DNA of 64,000 nucleotides from a phage. The notes beneath the pieces were generated by a model. That model saw only the letters and a list, made by a program, of their open reading frames with translations, did no database searches and was not told where the DNA came from. Shown piece after piece: positions 15,958-60,545 of this stretch. The position numbers and the translations under genes were made by a program. The stretch is from NCBI GenBank assembly GCA_019338205.1, contig GCA_019338205.1_4761.1. One strand, given 5' to 3'. Numbering within the stretch: position 1 is the first letter of the stretch; each line of letters opens with the position of its first letter.

Positions 15958-15986
15958 TTGACAACCATAAACGACTATAGCATAAT
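15958..15986 (+). promoter_or_regulatory. early promoter cassette (PeSL-type) TTGACA-N17-CATAAT
   Basis: TTGACA 15958-15963, CATAAT 15981-15986, conserved leader catcgaaacgaaacacac and ggagaatcaaaATG. Confidence 0.6.
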
Positions 15987-16023
15987 GCACATATCGAAAC
16001 GAAACACACTTAGGAGAATCAAA

Positions 16024-16404
16024 ATGATGATGATGATGTTTAAAGATAAATTCGAATGTCACTACACCCGTAACTTTGACTTAGTATCCCGCTACTACAT
16101 TCATAAAGAAACTGGCACGCAAGTAGTTCTTGAATCTCACAGCGAAGTAGGATTCGATTCAACAAAAGTAGCAATTAGTGCTCGCTTCTGGGATAACGGC
16201 AAATTTGCTTATATCGCTTGGAACGACGACGAAAATATAATTACAGTAGCTTTCGGTGATGACTACTACACTAAAAAGACTTTCGATAGTAAGCCATCAA
16301 ATGAATACCTGAAAGCGTATGTGCAGCACATGTTCCAACGTGTTCTGACCGGAATGGAAATCAATGTCATGAAAGACATTGTAGACGAAGTAAAATATTC
16401 TTAA
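16024..16404 (+). CDS. hypothetical early protein (starts MMMMMFKD)
   Basis: ATG after conserved cassette leader; ORF track frame. Confidence 0.5.
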   Translation: MMMMMFKDKFECHYTRNFDLVSRYYIHKETGTQVVLESHSEVGFDSTKVAISARFWDNGKFAYIAWNDDENIITVAFGDDYYTKKTFDSKPSNEYLKAYVQHMFQRVLTGMEINVMKDIVDEVKYS

Positions 16405-16410
16405 AAATAG

Positions 16411-16445
16411 TTGACAACATGAAACGGGGGTAGTAAGATACCCCC
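16411..16445 (+). promoter_or_regulatory. early promoter cassette with hairpin enclosing -10 (TTGACA-N17-TAAGAT)
   Basis: TTGACA 16411-16416; stem gggggta/taccccc 16426-16432 with 16439-16445 around TAAGAT. Confidence 0.5.
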
Positions 16446-16470
16446 ACAAACAAACGAAAGGAGAATCAAA

Positions 16471-16629
16471 ATGAAATTCATCGGTAAAACTTTTATGTTC
16501 GTAGCTGGTACTCTGTTTACTGCAACTCTGTTAGCTGGTGGCTTAGATATCTTTACTGCCTTTGAAACTTTCGGGTATACTGTAGCATCGGGTGCTCTCT
16601 TCGGATTGGGTTTAGCGATTAGCAAATAA
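16471..16629 (+). CDS. small hydrophobic membrane protein (52 aa)
   Basis: ATG after ggagaatcaaa leader; below ORF-track size cut-off; G/A-rich TM-like sequence. Confidence 0.45.
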   Translation: MKFIGKTFMFVAGTLFTATLLAGGLDIFTAFETFGYTVASGALFGLGLAISK

Positions 16630-16638
16630 GGTGATAAT

Positions 16639-16842
16639 ATGGAATTGGATATGGTTAAAGCAAAATTTATGGGTAAGGATAAGAGCGGTAAAACATTTGT
16701 TATTAATAGAACATTGTTTAGCTCTGACCTTAAGTGGGTAACACAACAATTTGCGGAAGTCAACGAGGCAGTTGTGACATGCTTCGTTGATGGTAAAAAA
16801 GTTTTTGAAATTGATCGTCGTGGGGTGTCTAATGATCGCTAA
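16639..16842 (+). CDS. hypothetical small protein (67 aa)
   Basis: ORF track. Confidence 0.4.
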   Translation: MELDMVKAKFMGKDKSGKTFVINRTLFSSDLKWVTQQFAEVNEAVVTCFVDGKKVFEIDRRGVSNDR

Positions 16843-17029
16843 ACTGTTTAGCAATACTTTGTTTCTGATTGCATTTGTTTTCTTTCTGTGTCTGATCATC
16901 GGTGTGATTGCAGTCGGTAGTTATTCCGGTATTACAATAGATGATTTTTGTATGTTGGTTTTCTTTTCAAGTGTTCCTACACTCCTGATCGCTGTATGTG
17001 GTGCTTTTAGATGGATCTGTGATCTATGA
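16832..17029 (+). CDS. small two-helix membrane protein
   Basis: hydrophobic ORF; start taken at ATG 16832 overlapping previous stop. Confidence 0.4.
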   Translation: MIAKLFSNTLFLIAFVFFLCLIIGVIAVGSYSGITIDDFCMLVFFSSVPTLLIAVCGAFRWICDL

Positions 17030-17136
17030 CTGAACAGGAACGAATGATGTTGATAGGTGGACCTGAGTTCACTAAATTTGATGCAATTCTTATTGCGTTT
17101 GGTTTTCTTATGATCTGTTGTATGGTGGCGCTATGA
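17026..17136 (+). CDS. small membrane protein (36 aa)
   Basis: ATGA start/stop overlaps on both sides; hydrophobic C-terminus. Confidence 0.3.
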   Translation: MTEQERMMLIGGPEFTKFDAILIAFGFLMICCMVAL

Positions 17137-17357
17137 GTAGTATAAAATATTTCGCTTTCTTGTGCTTTATGATGTTCTTTACATTCTTTGCATGTGTTTT
17201 CTTTACCTGGCTTGCTCATGTTGATAATGCAACCGGACCGTTTTACTTCTTCTGTGTATTGTCTGTGTTGACTGGTGCTCTTGTTACGTGGATGATTCGA
17301 GATTGTTACGGAATGTATAAGTTTGAAAAGACTCGACCGAAATGGGGCAAACGATGA
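17133..17357 (+). CDS. small two-helix membrane protein
   Basis: ATGA overlap with upstream ORF; two hydrophobic segments. Confidence 0.4.
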   Translation: MSSIKYFAFLCFMMFFTFFACVFFTWLAHVDNATGPFYFFCVLSVLTGALVTWMIRDCYGMYKFEKTRPKWGKR

Positions 17358-17536
17358 AATTATTTGCGTGGCTAATTATTTTAAATGTAATTGTTAAGAC
17401 CTTTCTCGCTGGTCTGATGATGGCGCATAGCACGAAACCAGAAGAAGCATTAACGTATTTTGTTGCTTATGTGCTGGGATTCTTGCTTACTGCGTGGATG
17501 TGTGATGAATATCGAAGAATTGAGGTAAAACCATGA
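17354..17536 (+). CDS. small two-helix membrane protein
   Basis: ATGA overlap; two hydrophobic segments. Confidence 0.4.
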   Translation: MKLFAWLIILNVIVKTFLAGLMMAHSTKPEEALTYFVAYVLGFLLTAWMCDEYRRIEVKP

Positions 17537-17751
17537 AAATGACTTTTTATATCTTAGCAAGTATCATGCTTGTGATCTCTTCTGCATTATTTGCATTTCT
17601 TACCGTTTGGGGGATCTGTACTGATGCGAAGCCGTGGGATATCGTAGAAAATACGGTTATGTTTATTATTAGTGTCATGTGTCTTTTTGATGCATTTAAC
17701 TCTATCAAGGAAGAAGACCAAAAACGTCGCGATAGAAAGCGATATAAATAA
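17533..17751 (+). CDS. small membrane protein with basic C-terminus
   Basis: ATGA overlap; hydrophobic N-terminal two thirds, KRRDRKRYK tail. Confidence 0.4.
   Translation: MKMTFYILASIMLVISSALFAFLTVWGICTDAKPWDIVENTVMFIISVMCLFDAFNSIKEEDQKRRDRKRYK
17743..17750 (+). promoter_or_regulatory. T4-type late promoter TATAAATA
   Basis: exact TATAAATA overlapping the stop of ORF 17533-17751, facing a 150-nt ORF-free structured segment. Confidence 0.4.
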
Positions 17752-17756
17752 TAGTG

Positions 17757-17927
17757 AACTAAAGACAGCGCGGTTAGAATGATTTGGACGTCACCTAGCC
17801 GCATTTATTGCAGCGTATGGGCGATCCGGTACGCTAAAGCATTCACTTGCTAGGCCGCTAGCAGGTTGGAGACAAGGAAGATTCGCTACCTTCCCTATAA
17901 GCCACTCTTCGGAGTGGCTTTTTTATT
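17757..17927 (+). ncRNA. candidate small structured RNA (late-promoter to terminator unit)
   Basis: no ORF above 25 codons; hairpins agcgta/tacgct, gctag/ctagc, ggaag/cttcc; ends at strong terminator. Confidence 0.25.
17901..17927 (+). terminator. intrinsic terminator
   Basis: gccactc-ttcg-gagtggc hairpin followed by TTTTTTATT. Confidence 0.75.
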
Positions 17928-17952
17928 GCCTAAAATTTTTTTAAAAAAGTTG

Positions 17953-17981
17953 TTGACACCAGATCCGGCCTATAGCATAAT
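17953..17981 (+). promoter_or_regulatory. early promoter cassette TTGACA-N17-CATAAT
   Basis: TTGACA 17953-17958, CATAAT 17976-17981, conserved leader. Confidence 0.6.
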
Positions 17982-18027
17982 ACACCCATCGAAACGAAAC
18001 ACACTTTCTTAAACGGAGAATCAAATT

Positions 18028-18213
18028 ATGGCACGTCGCATCACTAAAGCACTGAAAGCAGTAAGCAAAGAAAACGTAGTAGCTATTCTGGTAATCTGGG
18101 GTTATAACGAAGAATCCGCTAAACAGAAAGTTGAAGCAGGGTTTGAACTGGCAGTAAAAGCAATGCCGAATGATGACTCTGTAGGACTGGCAAACTATAT
18201 TGCATATTTCTGA
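18028..18213 (+). CDS. hypothetical early protein (61 aa)
   Basis: ORF track; ATG after cassette leader. Confidence 0.45.
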   Translation: MARRITKALKAVSKENVVAILVIWGYNEESAKQKVEAGFELAVKAMPNDDSVGLANYIAYF

Positions 18214-18221
18214 TAAAAGTG

Positions 18222-18250
18222 TTGACAGGGGAGGATAACTCCCCTACAAT
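18222..18250 (+). promoter_or_regulatory. early promoter cassette with spacer hairpin (TTGACA-ggggag..ctcccc-TACAAT)
   Basis: TTGACA 18222-18227, inverted repeat in spacer, TACAAT 18245-18250. Confidence 0.55.
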
Positions 18251-18279
18251 ACAACCATCAACGAAACGGGAGAATCAAA

Positions 18280-18507
18280 ATGATTAACTTTAAAGACGCA
18301 GCAAAAGAAATTATCGACTTTGAGCGCGAACTGTTTGAGATTGAACCGCAGATGGGTAAAATGGAACTGGCTAACCAGATCTGGGCTACTAGACTGAATC
18401 CGACTGACCGCTTAGAGATCATGAACCTTGTAGGTGCAAGCGACATGAAAGGTGGTGCGATGGCTAAACTCCGTAAATGCACCGCATACATTGCAGAACA
18501 ACTTTAA
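18280..18507 (+). CDS. hypothetical early protein (75 aa)
   Basis: ORF track; cassette leader. Confidence 0.45.
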   Translation: MINFKDAAKEIIDFERELFEIEPQMGKMELANQIWATRLNPTDRLEIMNLVGASDMKGGAMAKLRKCTAYIAEQL

Positions 18508-26605: not shown

Positions 26606-26789
26606 AAATGATCTATATTCCGGTGATTGGGTGAAACGTCAGTCTGTGGAAAACGTAACATGTTTTCGTTGTTTCACTGAATACAATATAAAAACCGCTC
26701 CTGTTAGTGTTCCAACGACAGACGGGTATTATATTAAAGAACCGCATTGCCCTAAATGTAAATGTCGATTATATTGGAGTCATCTATGA
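26595..26789 (+). CDS. small Zn-ribbon protein (CxxC...CxxC)
   Basis: CFRCF...CPKCKC; ATG overlapping macro gene end. Confidence 0.4.
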   Translation: MTNKNDLYSGDWVKRQSVENVTCFRCFTEYNIKTAPVSVPTTDGYYIKEPHCPKCKCRLYWSHL

Positions 26790-27004
26790 AGAAGCCTAAT
26801 ACCGCTCACATGAAAGAAAACTGCCGATGTGTTAGATGTGGTTGGCCTATTATATTCACTTGCTGTAACGACGATATGCAGCGTTTACCGTGGGGAATGT
26901 GGGATTGGTGGATGTATTGCAGCAATAAAGGTTGCGACCATCATGAAGGTGAAGGAGTCTTTCAGGAAACACCTGATTGGGTGGAGGTGATAGAAAATGC
27001 TTGA
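26786..27004 (+). CDS. small Cys/Trp-rich protein
   Basis: CRCVRCGWPIIFTCCNDD...CSNKGCDHHEGEG. Confidence 0.4.
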   Translation: MKKPNTAHMKENCRCVRCGWPIIFTCCNDDMQRLPWGMWDWWMYCSNKGCDHHEGEGVFQETPDWVEVIENA

Positions 27005-27290
27005 GACTATCATTAATCTTGTTGTGTGGACTTTTATTTTCGTTATTGTTATTATGGCGGGTGTAGAGATTGTAAAACAATATCTATTGCAATCTCGAAA
27101 TAAACATGTTGTCGTTGATATGGACTCGCAAGGCAATAAGTTGATCCGGTTAGAAGATGGTCGGGAATATTGGGTCGGGTATCCCAAAACTCTGAAAGGG
27201 TTTATCCTTGCCATGAGCATTAACATCTTTTTCATTGGTATCTGGACTTATATCGGTTTAGGTCTTGTTGGATTTTTGGAGATTAATTAA
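26997..27290 (+). CDS. membrane protein (97 aa, two hydrophobic segments)
   Basis: ORF track; directly upstream of tk. Confidence 0.45.
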   Translation: MLETIINLVVWTFIFVIVIMAGVEIVKQYLLQSRNKHVVVDMDSQGNKLIRLEDGREYWVGYPKTLKGFILAMSINIFFIGIWTYIGLGLVGFLEIN

Positions 27291-27886
27291 TGGCGCAATT
27301 ATATTTCTACTATGCATCTATGAACGCTGGCAAATCAACTTCTCTGTTACAAAGTGCTTATAACTATACCGAACGTGATATGCGAGTATTAATTCTTAAG
27401 CCAGCGATTGATAATCGAGATTCAGAAAGTGAAGTCGTTTCCCGAATTGGCCTAAGTGCCCCAGCGATCACCTTCACTAAATCGGATGATCTTTTCGATT
27501 TGGTTTATCGTGAATCGTTAGGTAAGCGTAGACCGGATCGATGGCGTCCAGATGCAGTTTTTGTAGACGAAGCCCAATTTATGACTAAAGAGCATGTTTT
27601 AGGCTTGTGTGCGCTTGTTGATGATGCTAATATCCCTGTACTGTGCTATGGCCTTCGCACTGACTTTCAGGGCAATCTATTTGAAGGATCTGCGGCATTA
27701 ATGGCATTTGCTGATAAGCTGGTCGAAATGAAGGGTATTTGTCATTGTGGCAAGAAAGCGACTATGGTCCTTCGCGTAGATAAAGATGGTAATGTTATTC
27801 GCGATGGTGCTCAAATAGAAGTTGGTGCAGAGGATAAATATGTTTCGGTGTGCCGTAAACATTTTATTGACGGTACTACCAAATAA
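27290..27886 (+). CDS. tk: thymidine kinase
   Basis: MAQLYFYYASMNAGKSTSLLQSAYNY P-loop and C-terminal Cys cluster typical of Tdk. Confidence 0.95.
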   Translation: MAQLYFYYASMNAGKSTSLLQSAYNYTERDMRVLILKPAIDNRDSESEVVSRIGLSAPAITFTKSDDLFDLVYRESLGKRRPDRWRPDAVFVDEAQFMTKEHVLGLCALVDDANIPVLCYGLRTDFQGNLFEGSAALMAFADKLVEMKGICHCGKKATMVLRVDKDGNVIRDGAQIEVGAEDKYVSVCRKHFIDGTTK

Positions 27887-27913
27887 GAGTTAATCATAAA
27901 TAAAGCCCCAGAT

Positions 27914-27921
27914 TATAAATA
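27914..27921 (+). promoter_or_regulatory. T4-type late promoter TATAAATA (inside loop of 9-bp inverted repeat)
   Basis: exact TATAAATA; flanked by ccccagatt 27906-27914 and aatctgggg 27936-27944; 33 nt upstream of ATG 27954. Confidence 0.45.
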
Positions 27922-27953
27922 TAACTGAATATTTCAATCTGGGGGAATGACTT

Positions 27954-28256
27954 ATGTCATTTATTCGTAAAACTCTAACAGCGGCAATATGCTTGACTGC
28001 GGTCGGAAGTGTCAGTGCTGATCAATATGATCCAACTGGTGACTTTACTGATTATTTCGACGGCGCAATGATAGTATATGTAAACAAAATATCTCCTTCC
28101 ATTGAAACCAGCCAGAAATTTCATGCCCATATTATGAAGATGTATGCTCGTAGTAAATGTATGGATTCTAGGCAGTGTTTTATTATGGGTGGATATGCCG
28201 CACAACAATTTGTTCTGTTGCATAATATGGAGAATCGAGAACATGAAATTCAGTGA
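27954..28256 (+). CDS. secreted/periplasmic protein (100 aa)
   Basis: signal peptide ending VSA; downstream of late-promoter motif. Confidence 0.5.
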   Translation: MSFIRKTLTAAICLTAVGSVSADQYDPTGDFTDYFDGAMIVYVNKISPSIETSQKFHAHIMKMYARSKCMDSRQCFIMGGYAAQQFVLLHNMENREHEIQ

Positions 28257-28641
28257 TTTTCTAAAGACTTCCGAAGAGGGAAAGGCTAATAAAGTTGACC
28301 GCTTTATCGGTGAATGTCTGATGAGTGTTACTTATATGCATTCTGCGCATTTTGGGGTAACTGGTCCTGGATCTTATGCAAAACATAAGGCTCTAGAAGA
28401 GTTCTATCTTGAAATGCAAGAATTGGTTGATAATTTCACTGAAACCAATATTGGGATCACTGGTCGTTATCAGCCAAAGTTGGTCGTCCGCAAGGAGATT
28501 AGCGAAATTGCCTATTTGCAAGAGTTAACGCAAATGGCTAGTGAGATTTATAATGATGTTGATAGCTCGTTACAGAGTGTTTTAGACGATATCAAAGCTC
28601 TATGCTTTAAAACAATTTATAAACTCACTCGACTGGCTTAA
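28243..28641 (+). CDS. hypothetical protein (132 aa)
   Basis: ORF track frame; ATG 28243 with SD GGAG. Confidence 0.45.
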   Translation: MKFSDFLKTSEEGKANKVDRFIGECLMSVTYMHSAHFGVTGPGSYAKHKALEEFYLEMQELVDNFTETNIGITGRYQPKLVVRKEISEIAYLQELTQMASEIYNDVDSSLQSVLDDIKALCFKTIYKLTRLA

Positions 28642-28875
28642 TGTTAGTCACCGTGGGATGCATACCATAAGTAAAAGAATACTAGCATTAACACAACTAT
28701 TTGGCTTCCTCATACTTTCGCGTGTTCAATTACTGCCGAATCGGAAGACCCGTCTAAGACGAGGAAGGGTTATCATTGGAAAGGGATGGTGAATTGGTTA
28801 CTATGTTTAACTAGTTTAGCAAAGGTCGATTCAAACACTACTATACAAATGGACGTGAATAAAATATAATCAAAA

Positions 28876-28898
28876 GCCATCCGAAAGGGTGGCTTTTT
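28876..28898 (+). terminator. intrinsic terminator
   Basis: gccatcc-gaaa-gggtggc hairpin plus TTTTT. Confidence 0.65.
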
Positions 28899-28910
28899 CG
28901 TTTTTATGTG

Positions 28911-28939
28911 TTGACAACCGGAATAGGGTATAGCATAAT
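28911..28939 (+). promoter_or_regulatory. early promoter cassette TTGACA-N17-CATAAT
   Basis: TTGACA 28911-28916, CATAAT 28934-28939, conserved leader. Confidence 0.6.
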
Positions 28940-28968
28940 GCACACATCGACAACAAAGGAGAATCAAA

Positions 28969-29178
28969 ATGATTAATCCAGTAGCCGCAGCACTTGCTTC
29001 CGAAGAAACTTTGAAGTATATGGTAGAACATGCAGCAAAGAAAGGAGAAATTGTTACTGCCGATGAGATCGTAGAAACCATGCTCCGCGATCCGAATGGT
29101 AACACTGCAAAGTTTTTCGGTGATCATCTTAAACTGGCTTACAAAACAATTATGGAGACCGTGAAAAATGCAAAATGA
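28969..29178 (+). CDS. hypothetical early protein (69 aa)
   Basis: ORF track; cassette leader. Confidence 0.45.
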   Translation: MINPVAAALASEETLKYMVEHAAKKGEIVTADEIVETMLRDPNGNTAKFFGDHLKLAYKTIMETVKNAK

Positions 29179-29506
29179 TGTGATTGAAGTTATTATGAAT
29201 CAATACCGAAACCGGATTTGGTCTGGACGTATCAAAGAAGAAAAGGCAAAACGGATCATCGAAAAATATGCTGAAAAGACTAAGCAAGCGCCAACGGCTA
29301 ACAGAGTTATGATTCTTAAATGTCTGGTGCTTTCCGGTGACGATATGCCTATTGATGCAGAGACAGCCACCGATTTTCATAAGACCTATCGCCAGTGTGA
29401 TGTAATTTTTACTTCTGGCTTCGGTAGTTATGACTCTATTATGTGGAATTTAATGCACCTTGACGCAACGATCTGGGATGTACTTTCGGAGGAGGGTTAC
29501 AAATGA
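29168..29506 (+). CDS. hypothetical protein (112 aa)
   Basis: ORF track. Confidence 0.4.
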   Translation: MQNDVIEVIMNQYRNRIWSGRIKEEKAKRIIEKYAEKTKQAPTANRVMILKCLVLSGDDMPIDAETATDFHKTYRQCDVIFTSGFGSYDSIMWNLMHLDATIWDVLSEEGYK

Positions 29507-29853
29507 ACATTGACATTCAACGACTAATTGATCACCTTCACGCGGGAATACCTTATCATGGCGACGTTACCCGTGATATTCTTGATGTGTTGGAATATAC
29601 CCAGCAAGTGATCAACGAAAAGCAAGCATTAGAATCACGGATCGACGAGGCAATAGGAAACATTGCAACCGAAGATGAATTAGATAATCACTTTGGACCT
29701 GTTCTTGATGCTCTTATGGCTGCGCGTGATACCAAACTGAAACAGGATAAACAAGAATTTATCCTTGATGGTTTAGCTCGTTATCACAATGCAATTGATA
29801 TTATGAATAACCAGCATGATTATGCTATTAGTGTTTTGCGAGGTCTGGCATGA
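29503..29853 (+). CDS. hypothetical protein (116 aa)
   Basis: ORF track; ATGA overlap. Confidence 0.4.
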   Translation: MNIDIQRLIDHLHAGIPYHGDVTRDILDVLEYTQQVINEKQALESRIDEAIGNIATEDELDNHFGPVLDALMAARDTKLKQDKQEFILDGLARYHNAIDIMNNQHDYAISVLRGLA

Positions 29854-30134
29854 AAGACACAAACGAATTTAACTGTATTCAGGTAAGCCCGAATTTTATT
29901 GTTCCATCACTGGTGACTAAGCTGAATGGTCATATGGTCGCTTTGTCTTCCACACCGCCAGAATCAGGAAAGTTTATTACTATCGTAGTTTATGCGGGGC
30001 AAATTTTCTCTCATGATTGCTGCATGAAAAATGGTCAGTTGATGGTTGCAAATTATGACTACGGCGACCTTGAATGGGAAGTTTTAGGACTGGCTAAATG
30101 CGCTGAAATTCTGGGCTATATTCGATTAATTTAA
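29850..30134 (+). CDS. hypothetical protein (94 aa)
   Basis: ORF track; ATGA overlap. Confidence 0.4.
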   Translation: MKDTNEFNCIQVSPNFIVPSLVTKLNGHMVALSSTPPESGKFITIVVYAGQIFSHDCCMKNGQLMVANYDYGDLEWEVLGLAKCAEILGYIRLI

Positions 30135-30152
30135 ATTTTTTCTTAGAAAGTG

Positions 30153-30181
30153 TTGACAGCGATCCGGTGTCATTGCATAAT
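30153..30181 (+). promoter_or_regulatory. early promoter cassette TTGACA-N17-CATAAT
   Basis: TTGACA 30153-30158, CATAAT 30176-30181, conserved leader. Confidence 0.6.
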
Positions 30182-30222
30182 ACACCCATCGAAACGAGAT
30201 ACACTTTCTAGGAGAATCAAAA

Positions 30223-30444
30223 ATGGCAACTGTTAAAATTATCAAATCTTCCGCTGGTTTCGGTTTCATGCGTGGAGCTAAGTACCCGATGATTATTGAA
30301 AACGTTGCCATCGAAGATGGTATGGCTAAAGTGACCAGCCGTCAATTGTTCGAAGCTGGTGTTAAAACTGCTGAATCATGGGCGCTTCGTTACCCAAACA
30401 AAACTTGGTCTTTCTTCCTGAATGGAGAAGCAGAGGTCATCTAA
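30223..30444 (+). CDS. small protein, KIEIID-like paralog family
   Basis: VKIIKSSAGFGFMRGAKYPMIIE resembles ORFs at 32793, 33009, 33266. Confidence 0.45.
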   Translation: MATVKIIKSSAGFGFMRGAKYPMIIENVAIEDGMAKVTSRQLFEAGVKTAESWALRYPNKTWSFFLNGEAEVI

Positions 30445-30462
30445 GTAATATTATTAATCAAT

Positions 30463-30485
30463 GCCCCTTAAATGGGGCTTTTCTT
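30463..30485 (+). terminator. intrinsic terminator
   Basis: gcccc-ttaaat-ggggc hairpin plus TTTTCTT. Confidence 0.6.
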
Positions 30486-30498
30486 GTGAGGAAACTTT

Positions 30499-31278: not shown

Positions 31279-31284
31279 TTTTAT

Positions 31285-31317
31285 GGGCTATCCTTCGGGA
31301 TAGCCTTTTTGTTTTTT
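31285..31317 (+). terminator. intrinsic terminator
   Basis: ggctatcc-ttcg-ggatagcc hairpin plus T-run. Confidence 0.75.
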
Positions 31318-31322
31318 GGGTG

Positions 31323-31350
31323 TTGACAATGAAAATCATAGTGCTATAAT
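31323..31350 (+). promoter_or_regulatory. early promoter cassette TTGACA-N16-TATAAT
   Basis: TTGACA 31323-31328, TATAAT 31345-31350. Confidence 0.6.
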
Positions 31351-31379
31351 GCACACATACCAACTAAGGAGAATCAAAG

Positions 31380-44793: not shown

Positions 44794-44797
44794 TATT

Positions 44798-45262: not shown

Positions 45263-45274
45263 GGGGAATATATT

Positions 45275-46099
45275 ATGAAATGGGAAATTGGTAAAACTTA
45301 CACCTGGAAAGACGAAAACGCTAAAACTGAGTTTATTACTAACGGAGAAGGTGTTCTTTCTCCACTTAACAGCGATATTAGTGCAGCTATTGGTGACAAG
45401 CCATTTACCATCATCGAGATCGAGGGTAACGGTTGGATTGATGCAATAGAGCTAGACGGTGTTTATCATACGGCGAAAACTGCTACAGGAAAAGACATTT
45501 GGACTGCAACATATTTCTTTAGTCCATTCGATAGAAAATTCTTTCGTGAAGTTGAAGAAGTTCCCCAGAAATGGGAAGTTGGTAAAACTTATACTTGGAA
45601 AGATGTGAATGCTATGACAGACTTCTGCCATTATGCTGAAAACGCATCTAACCTTAATTATGTTATTGCACGAGCAATAAATTATAGACCTTTTACTGTT
45701 AAAAATGTTCGTCCATGTGGGCAAATTGATGTAATTGAAATTGATGGTAAAGACCATACTCTAATGAGCGCAACCGAAGATAGAGACCATAAAGGAACTA
45801 GCTGGTTTATTGATTCTGATAGAAAATTCTTTCGTGAAGTAGAAGAATTGGAAGTTATAACCACTGATTCTAAGATCGTTGGACAGTTGAAACGTCTGTT
45901 TAGTAGTCGTTACGGCCTGACAATGGTTAAATTTGGCGAAGCAAATGAAGGTAAAACCTTTGAACGTTTCGATGATTTCATTGCGGCACTTGACAAGATG
46001 GATGAAATCATGCAAGATCGCCAGAAGATTAAAGACCTTCAAGAAGACATTAAACGTCGTGAAGTTGAATTTTTGATTGGTAAAGAGCGAGGTTGGTAA
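45275..46099 (+). CDS. KWEVGKTY-family protein with two tandem modules
   Basis: two copies of KWE(I/V)GKTYTWKD...DRKFFREVEE module plus helical tail. Confidence 0.5.
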   Translation: MKWEIGKTYTWKDENAKTEFITNGEGVLSPLNSDISAAIGDKPFTIIEIEGNGWIDAIELDGVYHTAKTATGKDIWTATYFFSPFDRKFFREVEEVPQKWEVGKTYTWKDVNAMTDFCHYAENASNLNYVIARAINYRPFTVKNVRPCGQIDVIEIDGKDHTLMSATEDRDHKGTSWFIDSDRKFFREVEELEVITTDSKIVGQLKRLFSSRYGLTMVKFGEANEGKTFERFDDFIAALDKMDEIMQDRQKIKDLQEDIKRREVEFLIGKERGW

Positions 46100-50971: not shown

Positions 50972-51000
50972 TTGACGCGGGGAGAAATCCCCGTTATACT
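50972..51000 (+). promoter_or_regulatory. early promoter cassette with spacer hairpin (TTGACG-cgggga.tccccg-TATACT)
   Basis: TTGACG 50972-50977, TATACT 50995-51000. Confidence 0.55.
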
Positions 51001-51025
51001 CTCTAAAAATTGATGGGAGGTTATT

Positions 51026-51277
51026 ATGATTACTGACACACTGAAAGAATTTAACGCAAGTTTAGAGAAGTTTACTAAGATCCGAGTTTTTGAGGTTGTT
51101 CGGAATGGTCAACATATGCTATCCTTCCGTTCTAATTACGGGATGTGGACACATGATGAAATTCCTTTCGACCGAGACAATATCACTAGACTGGAACTAG
51201 CAACCATCGTATCCCGTAAGGTTGCTGATATTACCCAGAATGTTATTGCTCGTGGGTCTATGGAGTCTGTACGATGA
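51026..51277 (+). CDS. hypothetical protein (83 aa)
   Basis: ORF track. Confidence 0.45.
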   Translation: MITDTLKEFNASLEKFTKIRVFEVVRNGQHMLSFRSNYGMWTHDEIPFDRDNITRLELATIVSRKVADITQNVIARGSMESVR

Positions 51278-55098: not shown

Positions 55099-55785
55099 AT
55101 GAAACTGACTAAAGAAACCATTGCTACCCTGAAAAACTTTTCCGCTATTAACCCAGGTATCATCCTGAAAAAAGGAAACGTCCTGATCACCAAAAACATG
55201 ACAAACGTTGTATATGGTGAAGCGACTCTGAATCAAGAACTGGAACACGAAATTGGGATCTATGATCTTAACTCTTTCTTGGGTATTCTGAATCTGGTAG
55301 GCGATGAAGCAGATATTACGGTTGATGACCGCACCGGAAACATTCGTGTGTCTAATGATCGTCTGAAAATTAATTATCCTGGTGCTAGTGCTGCCGCCAT
55401 CGTATCACCGAAAGGCCGAGTTACTCCACCTGCAAGCGATGTAGATTACGAACTGAGCAACGACGATCTGAAACAGCTTATGAAAATGAGCAATCAGCTT
55501 AAAGTGGATCGCCTTGAATTTCTTCCGATTGATGGTCGTCTGATGATCAAAGGCTGGGAAGAGATTGACAAAAATAATCCGAATGAGATGTTTTGTCTTG
55601 ATATGGGCGAATATACCGGAACCGCAGACTTCCATTTCTTTATTCGTAAAGATAACATGAAACTGGTTGCTACTGACTTCGGCGATTACAAACTTAGCTT
55701 CACTCGCCGTAAGGCTGTATGGCTGGCAAGTGAAACCGTATCTTATATGATCGCGTGTGACCTTGACTCCAGCTACACCGACTAA
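55099..55785 (+). CDS. 45: sliding clamp gp45
   Basis: MKLTKETIATLKNFSAINPGIILK matches T4 gp45 N-terminus. Confidence 0.95.
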   Translation: MKLTKETIATLKNFSAINPGIILKKGNVLITKNMTNVVYGEATLNQELEHEIGIYDLNSFLGILNLVGDEADITVDDRTGNIRVSNDRLKINYPGASAAAIVSPKGRVTPPASDVDYELSNDDLKQLMKMSNQLKVDRLEFLPIDGRLMIKGWEEIDKNNPNEMFCLDMGEYTGTADFHFFIRKDNMKLVATDFGDYKLSFTRRKAVWLASETVSYMIACDLDSSYTD

Positions 55786-55797
55786 TATAATGATTGT

Positions 55798-55817
55798 GGG
55801 GAGTGTAAATACTCCCC
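55798..55817 (+). other. stem-loop between genes 45 and 44 (ggggagt-gtaaat-actcccc)
   Basis: perfect 7-bp stem, weak GTTTT tail; same gggagt/actccc arms as promoter cassette hairpins. Confidence 0.4.
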
Positions 55818-57403: not shown

Positions 57404-57404
57404 A

Positions 57405-57767
57405 ATGATTGAAATTAATTTGATTAGTCCTGAAAACTTCCTTAAAATTAAGGAAACTTTAACCCGCTGCGGCATTGCCAACAATCGTGACAAGACACTG
57501 TATCAGTCTTGTCATATTCTCCAGAAGAAAGGGCGCTATTACATCGTTCATTTCAAGGAGTTGTTGAAATTAGATGGTCGTAGTGTTAAAATGACGTGGG
57601 AAGATGAATTGCGCCGTAATAACATTGCAAAACTTCTTGCGCAGTGGAATCTATGCACCCTGATTGATAGTGATTTTGAAACTACCGAAGTTAATAATTT
57701 CCGTGTACTGTCTTTTAAACAGAAAGAAGAGTGGACGCTGATCGAGAAATATCAGATCGGGCGATAA
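57405..57767 (+). CDS. regA: translational repressor RegA
   Basis: MIEINLISPENFLKIKETLTRCGIANNRDKTLYQSCHILQKKGRYYIVHFKE close to T4 RegA. Confidence 0.95.
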   Translation: MIEINLISPENFLKIKETLTRCGIANNRDKTLYQSCHILQKKGRYYIVHFKELLKLDGRSVKMTWEDELRRNNIAKLLAQWNLCTLIDSDFETTEVNNFRVLSFKQKEEWTLIEKYQIGR

Positions 57768-57788
57768 GATACTGATGGGATAGGGGTA

Positions 57789-57817
57789 TTGACAAACTAA
57801 GTCGATTCCCCTATAAT
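57789..57817 (+). promoter_or_regulatory. sigma70-like promoter TTGACA-N17-TATAAT upstream of gene 43
   Basis: TTGACA 57789-57794, TATAAT 57812-57817. Confidence 0.55.
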
Positions 57818-57849
57818 GAGTGTCTTTCGTAAGTGAAGGAGTTTATATT

Positions 57850-60528
57850 ATGTATTTTCTGTCATGTGAGCGAGTAGGTGATAAGATCTACGAGCGTTAT
57901 ATTGATTATGCTGGACAAGAACAAGAGCGTTACGTTGAATATACGCCAACATTATTTCATCATGCCGCGCCTGGTATGGTTACGAATTATAAAGATATCT
58001 ATGGCAAGCCTTGCATTGCTAAAAAATTCCCATCTATGAACGAGGCCAACAAATGGCGTAAAAAGATGGGAGAAATGGGGCAAGAGGCACTAGGGATGGA
58101 TGATTTTATCATCTCCTATCTGTCCGATACATATAAAGGCGAGATTCGATATGACCGAAATAAAATCCGTGTAGCGTGGGTTGATATTGAGGTCACTGCC
58201 CCAGAATTTCCTAAACCAGAAGAAGCGAAATATCCTATCGATGCAATTACGCATTATGATTCCGTACATGATCGTTTCTTTGTATTTGATTTGAAAGGAA
58301 AAAACGGTGAAATCTGGGAAGCAAGCAAGTCTATTCTTCGACCTGATATTGTGGAGCGCGTTGTTTATAACGTTTATGACACAGAAGATGAATTGCTGTT
58401 AGAATACATCCGATTCTTTGAGGAAAACCGACCCGTTGGTTTCACTGGCTGGAACACAGAAACATTCGATATTCCATATATCATTAAGCGTATCAGCAAT
58501 AAGTTTGGAAGTCGAACGGCAAACCGTTTAAGCCCGTGCGGTAAGATTAAATCCCGAATCTCACAGGATGATTTTGGCAACGAGCGTGAAGCATTTACGA
58601 TCATGGGGATCGAAAGCCTTGATTATATTGACCTGTACAAGAAATTTAGCTTTACGACTCAACCAACATATGCGTTAGATTATGTTGCTGAATATGAGAC
58701 AGGAATCGGTAAGGTTGATTATGATGGTCCGTTAAAGAAATTGCGTGATGACAATCATCAACTTTACATCGATTATAACATCGGCGACGTTGATCGTGTG
58801 CTGGCGATTGATAAAAAGCGTGGATTTATCGATCTTGTGTATAGTCTATGTTTCTATGCAAAGATTAAATTTAACCATGTTTATAACCCGATGAAAGTAT
58901 GGGATGCTATCATCTTCGGATCTCTGAAAGCTGAGGGTAAAGTAGTACCGGAAAATAAGATACAGCCTAAGCAGACTTATCCGGGCGCATTCGTAAAAGA
59001 ACCTGTGCCGAATGCTTACCGTTGGATGATGAGCTTTGACTTAACAAGTCTGTACCCATCTATTATTCGACAGGTTAATATTTCTCCTGAAACAATCGCT
59101 GGATCTTTTGATGCTGCACCGATGCACGAGTATATCAATAAAACTGCACCACGTCCGAGTGATGAGTATTCTTGCTCGCCTAACGGATGGATGTATAGAA
59201 AAGATATTCATGGTATCGTACCGATTGAGATTAAAAAGGTATTCGATCAGCGTAAGCAGTACAAAAACATGATGTTGGCATGTGATCGCAATGCTGAACT
59301 ATGTAAAGCGATTCTACACGATGAAAATCATGTTTATGGGGGAACCATTAGCTATAGCGTTGAAGTGCGTCACGACTTTGATGAAGCGTTTAAATCGATG
59401 CTTTCTGAATTAAGTAAAGATGCCTTAGAGAAATTGCTGGAAGAATGTAAAGACGAGTCGATCTTGTGCAATACAAACCAGCTTTCTCGAAAAGTTTTGA
59501 TTAACTCCCTTTATGGTGCGTTGGGGAATCCTAAATTCCGTTTTTATGATCTCCGTAACGCTAGTGCGATCACCTTGTTTGGTCAGCTTGCAATTCAGTG
59601 GATTGAGCGTAAGATTAACGAATACTTAAACGAGCTTTGCGGAACAACCGATTTTGCATATGTTCGTTATTGTGATACTGACTCCGTTTATGTGCTGGTT
59701 AACAATGTTGTTGATAAGGTTGGCGGGGAAGACCGTTTCGACGATACCGAAAAACTTGTTGACTTCCTTGATAATTTCGGTAAACATCGAATGGAACCGA
59801 TTATCGACAAAGGATATCGCGAGTTATGCGAGTACATGAACAACTACGAGCACTTGATGTTTATGGACCGCGAGGCAATTGCTGGTCCTCCGTTGAAATC
59901 TGCGGGTATCGGTGGATTCTGGACTGGTAAAAAGCGTTATGCTCTTAATGTTTGGGATATGGAAGGAACGCGCTTTGCTGAACCTAAGCTAAAAATCATG
60001 GGCTTGGAAACGCAACGTAGCTCTACACCTAAAGCATGTCAGAAATCACTGAAAGAATGTATTCGCCGTATGTTGCAGGAAGGGGAAGAATCGCTACAGA
60101 AATACTACGGTATTTTTGAGCAAGAATTTAGAAAACTTGACTATCTTGAGGTTGCTGCGGTATCATCTGCAAACAACCTACAGAAATACAGCGATTCAAA
60201 CGGGTATCCGATTAAGGGTTGTCCGTATGCGGTTAAGAGTGTATTGTGTTATAATCGTAATGCTCGAAAATTCGGACTAGATCCGATTCGTGAAGGCGAG
60301 AAGGTTATGATTGTACCGCTTAAAGATCGAAATCCGTTTGGAGAAATCTGTTTTGGTTGGTTGTCTGGTACTCGTATTCCTCCAGAAATTGAATCAGAGG
60401 TGTTGAAGTGGTTGGACTGGCCTTTGTTGTTTAATAAGACTTTCGTCAAACCACTGGAGAACATTACCACGGCTGCAAAGCTGCAATATGAAAAGGTGGC
60501 ATCGCTCACGGACCTGTTTGACATTTAA
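57850..60528 (+). CDS. 43: DNA polymerase gp43 (family B)
   Basis: N-terminus and exo/pol motifs (FDIEV, YNIGDVD, SLYPSII, YCDTDS) align with T4 gp43; SD AAGGAG. Confidence 0.97.
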   Translation: MYFLSCERVGDKIYERYIDYAGQEQERYVEYTPTLFHHAAPGMVTNYKDIYGKPCIAKKFPSMNEANKWRKKMGEMGQEALGMDDFIISYLSDTYKGEIRYDRNKIRVAWVDIEVTAPEFPKPEEAKYPIDAITHYDSVHDRFFVFDLKGKNGEIWEASKSILRPDIVERVVYNVYDTEDELLLEYIRFFEENRPVGFTGWNTETFDIPYIIKRISNKFGSRTANRLSPCGKIKSRISQDDFGNEREAFTIMGIESLDYIDLYKKFSFTTQPTYALDYVAEYETGIGKVDYDGPLKKLRDDNHQLYIDYNIGDVDRVLAIDKKRGFIDLVYSLCFYAKIKFNHVYNPMKVWDAIIFGSLKAEGKVVPENKIQPKQTYPGAFVKEPVPNAYRWMMSFDLTSLYPSIIRQVNISPETIAGSFDAAPMHEYINKTAPRPSDEYSCSPNGWMYRKDIHGIVPIEIKKVFDQRKQYKNMMLACDRNAELCKAILHDENHVYGGTISYSVEVRHDFDEAFKSMLSELSKDALEKLLEECKDESILCNTNQLSRKVLINSLYGALGNPKFRFYDLRNASAITLFGQLAIQWIERKINEYLNELCGTTDFAYVRYCDTDSVYVLVNNVVDKVGGEDRFDDTEKLVDFLDNFGKHRMEPIIDKGYRELCEYMNNYEHLMFMDREAIAGPPLKSAGIGGFWTGKKRYALNVWDMEGTRFAEPKLKIMGLETQRSSTPKACQKSLKECIRRMLQEGEESLQKYYGIFEQEFRKLDYLEVAAVSSANNLQKYSDSNGYPIKGCPYAVKSVLCYNRNARKFGLDPIREGEKVMIVPLKDRNPFGEICFGWLSGTRIPPEIESEVLKWLDWPLLFNKTFVKPLENITTAAKLQYEKVASLTDLFDI

Positions 60529-60545
60529 GATAAAGTGTGTATAAT
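60518..60545 (+). promoter_or_regulatory. sigma70-like promoter TTGACA-N16-TATAAT overlapping gene 43 stop
   Basis: TTGACA 60518-60523, TATAAT 60540-60545, followed by short hairpin. Confidence 0.5.

Follow-up and report, generated by a model that had tools for sequence, protein, structure and literature searches.

Identification of the Repeated Modules

The window, the whole stretch of 64,000 nucleotides of phage DNA analyzed here, carries a module of 70–110 bp that is repeated across it. Judged by their sequence, these modules are very probably promoter-early stem-loops (PeSLs) of the RB49/phi1 type, which initiate early transcription and occasionally recombine. PeSL modules have already been published, and the observation in the window thus concerns a known system. 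By nucleotide comparison the window derives from a Krischvirus, an RB49-like T4-type coliphage, and shows 95.8–97.4% identity to RB49, Phi1 and E26 and 96–97% to GEC-3S. The homing-endonuclease insertions form a set particular to this phage, and its gp38 contains an opal codon.

The pattern TTGACA-N15-19-YATAAT was found 12 times in the window versus an expectation of 0.22, and 0 of 100 shuffled sequences reached 12 matches. Eleven matches lie on the plus strand within 15958–60545 and one on the minus strand (522–495). A repeat search recovered the module as families D1–D4. Copies were aligned and an nhmmer profile spanning −25 to +50 around the −35 box was built. The profile search revealed one sequence family of 17 robust copies with E ≤ 8e-8, while the next site, 57789, scored E = 0.064. 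Sixteen robust copies are located on the plus strand (15958 to 43611) and one on the minus strand in the baseplate gene cluster (463–563), the latter being the sole copy outside the profile seed. In leave-one-out searches 16/17 copies were recovered with E ≤ 5e-4; for the copy at 43539 the value was 1.7. Five looser promoter/hairpin sites were also recorded (25114, 50972, 55763, 57789 and 60518, the last ending at 60592), two of which, 25114 and 55763, gave no match in the profile search of the window. A further candidate at 35617 was dropped, being located within an ORF.

Robust copies
15921–16029, plus strand: terminator hairpin 15921–15941 and T-run; −35 TTGACA at 15958; −10 CATAAT ending at 15986; leader; GGAGAATCAAA; ATG 16027 (ORF125 homolog); terminator and promoter annotated in GEC-3S
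16411–16473, plus strand: −35 at 16411; −10 TAAGAT within hairpin GGGGGTA/TACCCCC (16426–16445); GGAGAATCAAA; ATG 16471
17899–18030, plus strand: upstream terminator 17899–17920; −35 at 17953; CATAAT; full leader CATCGAAACGAAACACAC; GGAGAATCAAA; ATG 18028
18219–18282, plus strand: −35 at 18222; spacer hairpin GGGGAG..CTCCCC; −10 TACAAT; GGAGAATCAAA; ATG 18280
18915–18988, plus strand: −35 at 18915; −10 CATAAT within hairpin GGGTGTAT/ATACACCC (18923–18953); ATG 18986; heads a long operon up to 24271
24272–24331, plus strand: −35 at 24272; −10 TAATAT within hairpin GGGGGTA/TACCCCC (24287–24306); ATG 24329 (ORF095, then regB)
28872–28971, plus strand: upstream terminator 28872–28897; −35 at 28911; CATAAT; GGAGAATCAAA; ATG 28969
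30153–30225, plus strand, upstream of ORF080, left border of the ORF080+gp38 cassette: −35 at 30153; CATAAT; weak spacer hairpin; GGAGAATCAAA; ATG 30223; used in the phiS junction
31285–31382, plus strand, downstream of gp38, right border of the gp38 cassette: terminator 31285–31306; −35 at 31323; TATAAT; GGAGAATCAAA; ATG 31380 (ORF078)
33840–33914, plus strand: −35 at 33840; spacer hairpin GGGGAT..ATCCCC (33845–33863); −10 TATACT; GGAGAATCAAA; ATG 33912
34517–34582, plus strand: −35 at 34517; TATAAT within hairpin TGCGGTTATCA/TGACCGCA (34528–34553); Shine-Dalgarno (SD) GAGG; ATG 34580
37742–37804, plus strand, left partner of the KFS-EC deletion: −35 at 37742; −10 TAAAAT within hairpin ATGGGAGTA/TACTCCCAT (37755–37778); ATG 37802
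38653–38715, plus strand, right partner of the KFS-EC deletion: −35 at 38653; −10 TAAGAT within hairpin GGGAGTA/TACTCCC (38668–38687); SD GAGG; ATG 38713 (frd.2)
39888–39948, plus strand: −35 at 39888; 16-nt spacer; TATAAT within hairpin GGGAGTAT/ATACTCCC (39900–39921); ATG 39946
42353–42453, plus strand, downstream of nrdD: terminator 42353–42374; −35 at 42391; TATAAT; ATG 42448/42451
43539–43611, plus strand, the most divergent copy: −35 TTGACG at 43539; spacer hairpin GGGGATC..GATCCCC (43544–43561); TATACT; GGAGAATCAAA; ATG 43609
463–563, minus strand, between the gp8 and ORF140 homologs in the baseplate gene cluster: terminator 563–536; −35 at 522–517; TATAAT 500–495; ATG 465–463; E = 3e-9; promoter and terminator annotated in GEC-3S

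Looser sites
25114–25179, plus strand, gap between regB and vs.1: TTGACT-17-TATTAT; SD GGAG; ATG 25177; promoter annotated in GEC-3S
50972–51028, plus strand: TTGACG; spacer hairpin CGGGGAGAAATCCCCG; TATACT; ATG 51026
55763–55817, plus strand, beginning in the last codons of gp45: TTGACT-17-TATAAT; then hairpin 55798–55817
57789–57852, plus strand, upstream of the gp43 DNA polymerase gene: TTGACA-17-TATAAT; hairpin over −35 and spacer; ATG 57850; E = 0.064
60518–60592, plus strand, end of gp43: TTGACA-16-TATAAT; hairpin 3' of the −10; ATG 60590 (ORF025 homolog)

The 16 robust plus-strand copies and the five looser sites amount to 21 sites in 15958–60545, so the figure of about 20 recurrences given in an earlier note on this DNA stands. 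That note also mentioned a copy inside the baseplate operon. It exists (463–563), lying beyond the interval 15958–60545 and on the opposite strand. The copy described next to the gp38-like gene was found as well: 31323 is situated downstream of gp38, and 30153 borders the ORF080+gp38 cassette on its left.

All copies are intergenic; 55763 and 60518 begin within the final codons of gp45 and gp43, respectively. The hairpin at 55798–55817 looks like the gp45 terminator; in G2248 a terminator is annotated after the sliding-clamp gene. For the 16 robust plus-strand copies and 25114, the distance between the stop codon upstream and the −35 box is either 0–44 bp or 200–270 bp with non-coding remnant DNA, and the −10 box precedes the start codon by 28–46 bp. 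The region upstream of the copies is AT-rich (70% versus 60%). The view that each copy drives one to several small ORFs was too narrow, since some modules stand at the front of operons that comprise 9 to about 20 genes and include the known functions regB, tk, dam, endoVII, nrdD and nrdG. The near-consensus sigma-70 promoter of each intergenic unit would be read by unmodified host RNA polymerase right after infection.

Relationship to PeSLs and Other Cassette Systems

All features that define PeSLs at the sequence level according to Arbiol et al. 2010 (PMC2839356) and Comeau et al. 2014 (PMC4122927) are found in the window copies. The profile built from the window only was also run against the Phi1 genome, where it detected 41 sites (E ≤ 1e-3); the early-gene strand carries 40 of these. 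Among the matches are the experimentally tested gaps 206/205, 193/191, 210/209 and 212/210, the last two of which flank ORF210. Since the window profile matches tested Phi1 PeSLs, there is little doubt that the modules of the window are PeSLs too. For phi1, 52 PeSLs were reported, and promoter activity, terminator activity and mini-circles were described for PeSLs of RB49/phi1 (PMC2839356). The RB49 early-promoter consensus was confirmed via 5'-end mapping (PMC1524935), and early promoter use of the RB49/phi1 homologs was shown by 5'-end mapping and lacZ fusions (PMC2839356, PMC1524935).

The RB49/phi1 PeSLs (Arbiol, Comeau, Kutateladze, Adamia, Krisch 2010, Genome Biol Evol 2:140; PMC2839356) belong to the same genus, and their loci are orthologous to those of the window at 95–100% identity. 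The anatomy is the same, namely TTGACA-N16-18-(T/C)ATAAT preceded by an AT-rich region, a Gn-loop-Cn stem-loop that can occupy several alternative positions, SD and ATG. They likewise prefer hyperplastic regions; g43 has PeSLs on both sides (PMC2839356), and these flanking copies are present in the window. No essential difference from the window copies was apparent. The match to PeSLs of RB49/phi1/JSE-type phages proposed in the earlier note is thus supported by close kinship, by the defining features and by the profile matches to tested Phi1 PeSLs.

PeSL-like elements of T4/PST and KVP40/nt-1 (Comeau, Arbiol, Krisch 2014; PMC4122927) also combine a promoter with a stem-loop in hyperplastic regions. 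They adjoin genes that differ between close relatives, and the same mini-circle/recombination model was proposed for them (PMC4122927). However, their consensus sequences are TTTACW...TAYWAT and TTGYVH...TAWWAT and their stems are AT-richer (PMC4122927); they are analogs and not sequence homologs of the window copies. Lambdoid morons and integron cassettes resemble the modules in that a small accessory gene with its own promoter and/or terminator lies between resident genes. To our knowledge, morons have no flanking conserved linker repeats, unlike PeSL-bordered genes. The comparison with morons and integron cassettes was made by the PeSL authors (PMC2839356). Integron cassettes differ by their integrase/attC-type site, neither of which these authors identified in RB49/phi1, where mobility was proposed to occur via homologous/microhomologous recombination between regulatory sequences (PMC2839356).

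In six relatives each copy is kept at the orthologous site with 88–100% identity wherever the fetched locus reaches the site. The sole exception is 31323 in G2248, where the 42-bp leader alone aligns. Promoters and terminators are annotated in GEC-3S at the same sites as the window copies. The repetition itself, and nothing beyond it, would fit an artefact of assembly or duplication, or a miniature mobile element that has spread recently. This explanation is almost certainly wrong. It is refuted by the conservation of orthologous sites in independently sequenced relatives, by the identity of just about 45% between paralogous copies in an alignment anchored on the −35 box, and by the exact placement of the copies between stop codon and start codon. 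Moreover, the module sequences as read show nothing like terminal inverted repeats or target duplications. The alternative that the earlier note had raised, assembly duplication or absence from related phages, is thereby set aside.

Hairpins and Terminators

A stable G-rich hairpin is part of every copy and can occupy several alternative positions. The mean best hairpin energy was −13.1 kcal/mol, and random segments of 130 nt gave −9.2 (p = 1.4e-6). An intrinsic terminator had been described ahead of most copies. This was not confirmed: an upstream hairpin with a T-run is present in only 6/17 copies (15958, 17953, 28911, 31323, 42391 and 522 on the minus strand), and the remaining 11/17 carry the hairpin inside the promoter, either in the spacer or over the −10 box. 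The G-run/C-run stem would insulate the unit from transcription arriving from upstream. Canonical intrinsic-terminator geometry occurs in the six upstream copies only. Since a sense-strand U-tract accompanies just 6/17 hairpins, the putative terminator role of the embedded class rests, by analogy, on one published construct, the phi1 PeSL211/210 stem-loop, which lowers lacZ expression to a degree similar to rrnB T1 (PMC2839356).

Embedded hairpins might instead not be mainly sense terminators; they could terminate transcription in the antisense direction, influence how the promoter opens, or form a cruciform/hairpin target for a structure-specific protein (e.g., endonuclease VII) that could start recombination. 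In Phi1, hairpins overlapping the −10 box are followed on the sense strand by a mean of 0.9 T in 8 nt, and it is the antisense strand that bears the T-run (mean 4.1; at least 5 T in 7/17); for Phi1 copies with the best hairpin over −35 and spacer the average is 5.4. The terminator scan of the window placed terminators on the minus strand at 16447–16424, 24309–24284 and 37780–37753. Among paralogs, stems over the −10 box are maintained via compensatory changes: paired cells make up 90%, double changes occur in 11 cells, none of 500 shuffles was as good, and slid controls gave 32–58%. A second stem register contains a switch from G-C to A-U. The compensatory changes indicate that the structure itself is selected. 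The KFS-EC crossover described below falls within a stem-loop, and a protein binding GGGG...CCCC was speculated on previously (PMC2839356). Against this stand the lacZ effect of the phi1 stem-loop, the lack of an evident source of antisense transcription into the early block and the phiS crossover, which lies in the SD block outside any hairpin. We therefore consider a mainly non-terminator function improbable and retain termination as the favored role of the embedded hairpins.

Leader and Translation Start

A conserved leader had been ascribed to all modules. The 18-nt leader CATCGAAACGAAACACAC was detected in 5 copies only, with up to 3 mismatches allowed. The start block GGAGAATCAAA, also described as shared, is exact in 9 copies, and its 9 occurrences all lie within PeSLs; the rest of the modules have no exact match. 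GGAG was found at 11/15 PeSL-proximal starts versus 17/68 internal starts (p = 7e-4).

GGAGAATCAAA agrees at 10/11 positions with GG*AGRAYARAA, the RegB/S1 consensus of T4 early mRNAs (Uzan and Miller 2010, PMC3014915). Like the RegB/S1 cleavage sites it forms part of an early cistron's translation initiation region, and regB is encoded in the window itself. The difference is position 8, C in GGAGAATCAAA and A in the consensus. Because GGAGAATCAAA nearly fits this consensus, in these 9 copies the RegB nuclease of the phage would probably silence the first cistron quickly.

Probable Recombination between Modules

In KFS-EC the two ORFs that separate PeSL37742 from PeSL38653 are missing, and the junction has one chimeric PeSL. 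This consists of the upstream part of PeSL37742 followed by the −10, leader and SD of PeSL38653, the crossover being located in the shared GGGAGTAGTAA. Similarly, phiS lacks ORF080+gp38 between PeSL30153 and PeSL31323; here PeSL30153 is joined to the ORF078 ATG inside the GGAGAATCAA block. Gp38 is missing in 13/59 relatives. Where gp38-less junctions were read (G2248, KMB43), a different PeSL core with the spacer hairpin CGGGGAGAAATCCCCG occupies the site, and the breakpoint lies immediately 3' of the −10 of PeSL31323. The same hairpin is present at window position 50972 and at Phi1 134556. These junctions and the gp38 losses support the suggestion that the copies mediate excision or swapping of cassettes.

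Nevertheless, the modules may be mere early promoters, terminators and ribosome-binding sites whose likeness stems from separate functional constraint, the junctions being ordinary microhomology events. The longest identical stretch between copies is short (median 10 bp, maximum 32 bp). The densest cluster, with five PeSLs at 15.9–19.0 kb, is structurally unchanged in 59/59 sequenced relatives. Furthermore, the roughly 15 indel events versus nine relatives are mostly homing-endonuclease insertions, tandem-paralog recombination or an internal gene deletion. The 28753–28823 difference beside PeSL28911 is an internal deletion in a 715-aa ORF between short repeats within the gene and not a PeSL event. 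Cassette content thus differs among relatives at PeSLs in KFS-EC, phiS and the gp38 variants, but most indels are unrelated to PeSLs. On the other hand, the KFS-EC and phiS breakpoints both lie in two PeSLs, and each junction is a working hybrid module. The CGGGGAGAAATCCCCG hairpin of the gp38-less phages recurs elsewhere, and inverse PCR revealed chimeric-PeSL mini-circles in RB49/phi1 (PMC2839356). A purely regulatory nature of the modules is therefore a possible but rather unlikely explanation, and we prefer occasional recombination between PeSLs.

The text of PMC2839356 contains 0 occurrences of gp38 and does not discuss the KFS-EC, phiS and gp38 loci. The chimeric-PeSL deletion junctions of KFS-EC and phiS and the presence or absence of the gp38 adhesin cassette are added here to the published system. 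With copies in direct orientation that share identical stretches of 10–32 bp, the recombination system of the phage would sometimes cross over between two of them. The genes in between would be lost and one chimeric PeSL left, as seen in two natural genomes; alternatively, a PeSL core may be swapped along with the adjacent gene cassette, as for gp38.

Phage and Gene Order

The region 15000-35000 of the window matched 120 phage records. The best match was Escherichia phage E26 (97.4% identity over 100% of the query), followed by GEC-3S, Phi1 and RB49 with 95.8-96.9% identity. All four are Krischvirus, that is, RB49-like, T4-type coliphages. The order of genes is that of Phi1 ORFs 143 down to about 22 and comprises the following blocks.

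1-10.3 kb, - strand: baseplate genes gp8-gp53
After 10.3 kb, + strand: early block from gp57A/57B to uvsX, including dmd, regB, tk, rI, gp38, dam and endoVII
Early block, continued, + strand: nrdD/G, gp55, gp47/46, gp45/44/62, regA, gp43 and uvsX

A Family of Intergenic Promoter Modules

The pattern TTGACA-N15-19-YATAAT occurred 12 times in the window at 0.22 expected matches, 11 times on the + strand between 15958 and 60545 and once on the - strand (at 522). An nhmmer profile spanning -25 to +50 around the -35 hexamer recovered 17 copies at E <= 8e-8, followed by a gap to site 57789 with E = 0.064. Since 16 of these copies had served as profile seeds, the search was repeated with each copy left out, and 16/17 were again recovered at E <= 5e-4, copy 43539 being marginal. 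All 17 robust copies, named here by the position of their -35 hexamer, possess TTGACA (TTGACG in 43539), a 16-17 nt spacer and a -10 hexamer whose second and sixth bases are A and T, respectively. A repeat search recovered the module as families of 4-7 copies each with a length of 61-68 nt; an Rfam search of the window returned no family. Sixteen robust copies on the + strand together with five looser sites (25114, 50972, 55763, 57789, 60518) give 21 elements between 15958 and 60545, in agreement with the estimate of about 20 in the earlier note.

All copies are located in intergenic gaps, although 55763 and 60518 begin within the final codons of gp45 and gp43, respectively. The ORF-rich block delimited by 57B and nrdG contains sixteen copies, and one is situated in the baseplate cluster, adjoining ORF140-143; g43 is flanked by looser copies. 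The distance from the preceding stop codon to the -35 hexamer is 0-44 bp, except for two copies where remnant DNA extends it to about 200-270 bp; 28-46 bp separate the -10 hexamer of the robust + strand copies from the start codon. The A+T content of positions -30 to -1 was 70% on average compared to 60% for the window; it was lower (47-57%) at most copies with a GC-rich terminator at this position.

Several details of the earlier note had to be corrected. Its conserved leader, 18 nt in length, is conserved in five copies only. An intrinsic terminator was said to precede most copies; an upstream hairpin followed by a T-run was found in only 6/17 (15958, 17953, 28911, 31323, 42391 and, on the - strand, 522). 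The copy reported inside the baseplate operon does exist between the gp8 and ORF140 homologs, but it is located at 463-563 on the - strand, outside the range 15958-60545 to which the copies had been assigned. The driven units are not confined to a few small ORFs: long operons of known genes stand behind some of the modules.

Three further candidates were evaluated. Candidate 35617 (TTGACT-18-TAACAT) is internal to the ORF065 homolog and is not a module. At 55763 promoter-like hexamers in the last gp45 codons are followed by an apparent gp45 terminator, and this candidate was kept as a looser site only. The third, TTGATA-16-TATAAT at 10354-10381, drives an inserted 231-aa ORF with a NUMOD3 motif located just downstream (10395-11090, + strand, between gp53 and gp4). 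It was not counted because it gave no profile match and overlaps the late-promoter motif TATAAATA of gp53 on the - strand (10372-10379). The NUMOD3 ORF is absent in 4/4 relatives whose fetched loci cover the site (Phi1, E26, GEC-3S, RB49).

A duplication during assembly would also produce repeated modules. Among the relatives whose fetched locus reaches each site, the copies were found at orthologous positions in E26, GEC-3S, RB49, JSE, G2248 and SFHK24 with 88-100% identity, the one exception being 31323 in G2248. Thus, assembly duplication is excluded.

Identity with Promoter-Early Stem-Loops

Promoter-early stem-loop elements (PeSLs) occupy the gap between two genes: the stop codon of the first is followed by an AT-rich stretch, a consensus sigma-70 promoter with a stem-loop and finally the Shine-Dalgarno (SD) sequence and initiation codon of the second (Arbiol et al. 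2010, PMC2839356). The stem-loop, often of the type polyG...polyC, has one of five locations: ahead of the -35 hexamer, on it, within the spacer, on the -10 hexamer or behind it. Phi1 was found to contain 52 PeSLs and RB49 51; most are in hyperplastic regions, in front of ORFans, and the few in core modules adjoin plastic genes, for example on both sides of g43 (PMC2839356). For RB49-type phages the consensus TTGACA-N17-TATAAT with a Gn-loop-Cn stem was given (Comeau et al. 2014, PMC4122927). The window copies display every one of these sequence-level features, namely promoter, AT-rich upstream region, hairpin and intergenic placement, and they share the preference for hyperplastic regions.

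The whole Phi1 genome, assembled from four fetched pieces, was searched with a profile made from the window copies only. This search revealed 41 sites at E <= 1e-3, with 40 of the 41 on the early-gene strand, compared to the 52 published PeSLs; at E <= 1 the number was 48. The matches include 122046-122102 (PeSL206/205) and 118769-118837 (in the 193/191 gap) as well as the PeSLs flanking ORF210 (123209-123278 and 123603-123665), all with E <= 5e-8. The matched gaps 206/205, 193/191, 210/209 and 212/210 hold PeSLs that were tested for promoter, terminator or mini-circle activity. Furthermore, promoter, -35, -10 and terminator features are entered at orthologous positions in the GenBank file for GEC-3S. 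The GEC-3S annotation and the Phi1 matches indicate that the elements were already known and that the identification as PeSLs in the earlier note was correct. With these elements a class known from the literature has been found again, in a phage that hardly differs from those for which it was described.

Fusions of PeSL206/205 to lacZ yielded about 13,000 Miller units, a strong promoter activity (PMC2839356). The early-promoter consensus of RB49 agrees with 5' ends mapped by Desplats et al. 2002, as cited in PMC1524935, and RB49 possesses neither motA nor middle promoters (PMC1524935). PeSL promoters together with read-through probably account for all pre-late transcription. Transcription is predicted to start approximately 7 nt downstream of each -10 hexamer, at the A of CATCGAAAC and similar sequences. 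Early promoters of T4 itself carry GTTTAC at -35 and an extended upstream and -10 context, which the window copies lack; like RB49 and unlike T4 they carry TTGACA, with G rather than T at -33. The window promoters probably work like T4 early promoters and in sequence belong to the RB49-type class.

Stem-Loops and Translation Start Blocks

A hairpin was present in every copy, with energies between -8 and -18 kcal/mol. The best hairpins averaged -13.1 kcal/mol compared to -9.2 kcal/mol in 150 segments of 130 nt drawn at random (Mann-Whitney p = 1.4e-6), and hairpins at <= -12 kcal/mol were present in 76% of the copies versus 17% of the random segments. In the 17 robust copies the hairpin is located upstream in six, in the -35/-10 spacer in four and across the -10 hexamer in seven; the looser sites 55763 and 60518 carry it downstream of the -10.

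The -10-spanning hairpins fall into two registers. Register 1 comprises nine distinct copies, taken from both the window and Phi1, and 90% of its cells were paired, a percentage that is partly circular since register members were picked for hairpin formation. Both sides had changed in 3/9 pairs, giving 11 double-change cells and stem variants such as GGGTGTAT/ATACACCC, GGGAGTAT/ATACTCCC and GCGGTTA/TAACCGC. The observed value was reached by 0/500 shuffles, and slid controls yielded 32-58%. Register 2 (twelve copies, likewise 90% of cells paired and selected in the same way) showed one G-C to A-U switch with a G-U intermediate. Since different sequences keep the same stem, selection acts on the stem-loop structure itself.

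Among the Phi1 copies, intrinsic-terminator geometry on the sense strand was confined to the upstream class, whose hairpins are followed by a mean of 6.3 T in the next 8 nt of the sense strand. For the class overlapping the -10 hexamer this number was 0.9 T on the sense versus 4.1 T on the antisense strand. In the window the canonical geometry was present in six copies, and the embedded hairpins possess no sense-strand U-tract. For the embedded hairpins a terminator role is suggested by the published construct, in which the stem-loop of Phi1 PeSL211/210 reduced lacZ expression like rrnB T1 (PMC2839356).

The SD core GGAG was found at 11/15 PeSL-proximal starts versus 17/68 internal starts (Fisher p = 7e-4), and all nine occurrences of the 11-mer GGAGAATCAAA are in PeSLs. 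In early genes of T4 the region of translation initiation holds the strong RegB/S1 cleavage consensus GG*AGRAYARAA (PMC3014915). The block GGAGAATCAAA agrees with it at 10/11 positions, and regB is encoded in the window. From this match we infer that the first cistron behind most PeSLs may be a RegB target, with a predicted cut at GG^AGAATCAAA; if true, expression of this cistron would be brief.

A second recurrent initiation block, GAGGATTATATTATG, occurs at internal and some PeSL-proximal cistrons, for example at 19909, 31669, 32997, 34568, 38701, 39934 and 47007. It is distinct from the GGAGAATCAAA block and has no GGAG core for RegB. The SD region of regB itself (24659-24669, GGATAATAAAA) contains GGAU rather than GGAG, in agreement with the literature, where RB49 is singled out among T4-type phages for having GGAU at the regB autoregulatory site.

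Recombination between PeSLs

The longest identical stretch between two copies measures 32 bp (17953 and 18915) and the median is 10 bp; the PeSL copies are poor substrates for homologous recombination. Comparison with nine relatives over 14-62 kb revealed about 15 indel events. Most are homing-endonuclease insertions, situated beside the endolysin gene, beside nrdC.11, in the dam/nrdC gap and inside nrdD and g43. Others result from unequal recombination of tandem paralogs (19509-19904, 31894-33008, 45560-45812). Enrichment of breakpoints near PeSLs was not significant in the nine genomes, with 2 of about 15 events compared to about 10% of the sequence lying <= 100 bp from a PeSL. Therefore, presence and absence were surveyed in the 59 Krischvirus records of the collection.

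In this survey the cluster of five PeSLs at 15.9-19.0 kb was intact in one aligned piece in 59/59 records. Three observations are in line with the mini-circle model of PeSLs, in which a crossover between two copies removes or inserts the ORFs lying between them and leaves a single chimeric PeSL; the third, the absence of gp38 from 13/59 records, is described under the gp38 locus. Phage KFS-EC does not contain the ORF060+ORF059 cassette (window 37802-38649) and carries a single chimeric PeSL at the junction: upstream region and -35 context derive from PeSL37742, -10, leader and SD from PeSL38653, and the crossover falls within the shared GGGAGTAGTAA of the stem-loop. Phage phiS has lost ORF080+gp38, its PeSL30153 promoter and leader being joined to the start codon of ORF078 by a crossover within the shared block GGAGAATCAA (30153 x 31323). 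These natural junctions bear out the suggestion of the earlier note that cassettes can be deleted by recombination between copies, of which fixed products are seen at two of the closely spaced pairs in the window, roughly nine in number. PeSL-to-PeSL recombination is real but infrequent and is one among several sources of plasticity in the window.

An indel at 28753-28823 beside PeSL28911 (the equivalent of Phi1 ORF84.1) had been considered PeSL-linked; alignment revealed an internal deletion of a 715-aa ORF. The apparently non-coding DNA at 28642-28870 is the remnant of this ORF, which is intact in G2248 and SFHK24 and had no Pfam match. The remnant retains about 120 nt of the 5' end (diverged) and about 45 nt of the 3' end, with approximately 2 kb lost between short internal repeats AAAGGTCGATT.

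Tandem paralog families of small genes are located at 19505-19899, 31862-33266 and 44257-46099 (repeat families D5, D8, D9 and D13). Their copy number varies among relatives by unequal recombination, in the window as frequently as PeSL events occur. Between the gp5.4 and gp5.1 homologs (6855-7418, - strand) lies a 187-aa ORF with HNH_3 and AP2 domains, which is absent from Phi1, E26 and RB49; GEC-3S carries a different HNH gene at this position. The ORF resembles a homing endonuclease gene placed within the baseplate operon. An insertion of approximately 1 kb with low GC content (0.36) at 12409-13417 (+ strand) is, among the compared genomes, common only to Phi1 (ORF130.1); its product shows two matches to the CapR homology domain (PF21817, E = 9e-15).

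The gp38 Locus

The long-tail-fibre adhesin gp38 is a host-range determinant of RB49-like phages. In the window its gene is located far from g37, between PeSL30153 and PeSL31323 and between terminators at 30463-30478 and 31285-31306. It is a late-function gene inside the early block, and no late promoter TATAAATA was found upstream of or near it. Three states of this locus occur in sequenced Krischviruses. The first is the full cassette. In the second, gp38 is absent (13/59 records) and the PeSL core is swapped. In the two junctions of this kind that were read, G2248 and KMB43, the ORF080 stop codon is directly followed by a PeSL with the different core TTGACA-CGGGGAGAAATCCCCG-TATAAT, joined to the resident leader CATACCAACTAAGGAGAATCAAA; the spacer hairpin CGGGGAGAAATCCCCG also occurs in PeSLs at window 50972 and Phi1 134556. 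In the third, ORF080+gp38 has been lost by a clean crossover between two PeSLs.

The gp38 segment (approximately 30610-31280) was the only part of 28-48 kb that matched phages outside the 59 Krischvirus records. It shares 78-87% nucleotide identity with phages some of which are annotated or named Tequatrovirus and with other non-Krischvirus T-even types. This distribution suggests that the adhesin cassette is exchanged horizontally. It is possible, though we regard it as rather doubtful, that in Krischvirus gp38 is a PeSL-bounded mobile cassette inside the early-gene block, which PeSL recombination captures, loses and exchanges between genera. The structure-conserved -10 hairpin could be the start site of gp38 recombination.

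The gp38 homolog of the window (30499-31278) contains an in-frame TGA at codon 69 (30703-30705). This codon is GGA or GGG (Gly) in 6/6 relatives, from which the window differs by a single G-to-T change. The TGA may represent a real nonsense mutation in a host-range gene, read-through or a sequencing error.

Phage G2248 (positions 9325-13314 of the fetched locus), which has no gp38 at the PeSL locus, encodes a longer gp37 (1014 aa). Between gp37 and the ORF252 homolog and holin there are three additional ORFs, each about 100 aa long and without a Pfam match. These ORFs may form an alternative fibre-tip module that makes gp38 dispensable.

Implications

A model reading the raw sequence alone was able to identify phage elements of regulation and recombination that belong to a published class. 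What the present analysis adds is modest: chimeric junctions in natural genomes, the polymorphism of the gp38 cassette, covariation in the -10 hairpin and the match to the RegB consensus. The densest PeSL cluster, frozen in all relatives surveyed, marks the limits of the PeSL model, and homing endonucleases and paralog recombination explain more of the gene-content differences in the window than PeSLs do. PeSLs are among the few concrete candidates for the "linker" sequences in Botstein's modular theory of phage evolution. The earlier basis of the PeSL model was a single pair of phages and circles detected by PCR; the KFS-EC and phiS junctions provide independent, population-level support, to which the presence/absence polymorphism of gp38 adds. 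If gp38 is indeed exchanged by PeSL recombination, PeSLs would drive host-range switching, beyond the turnover of ORFans.
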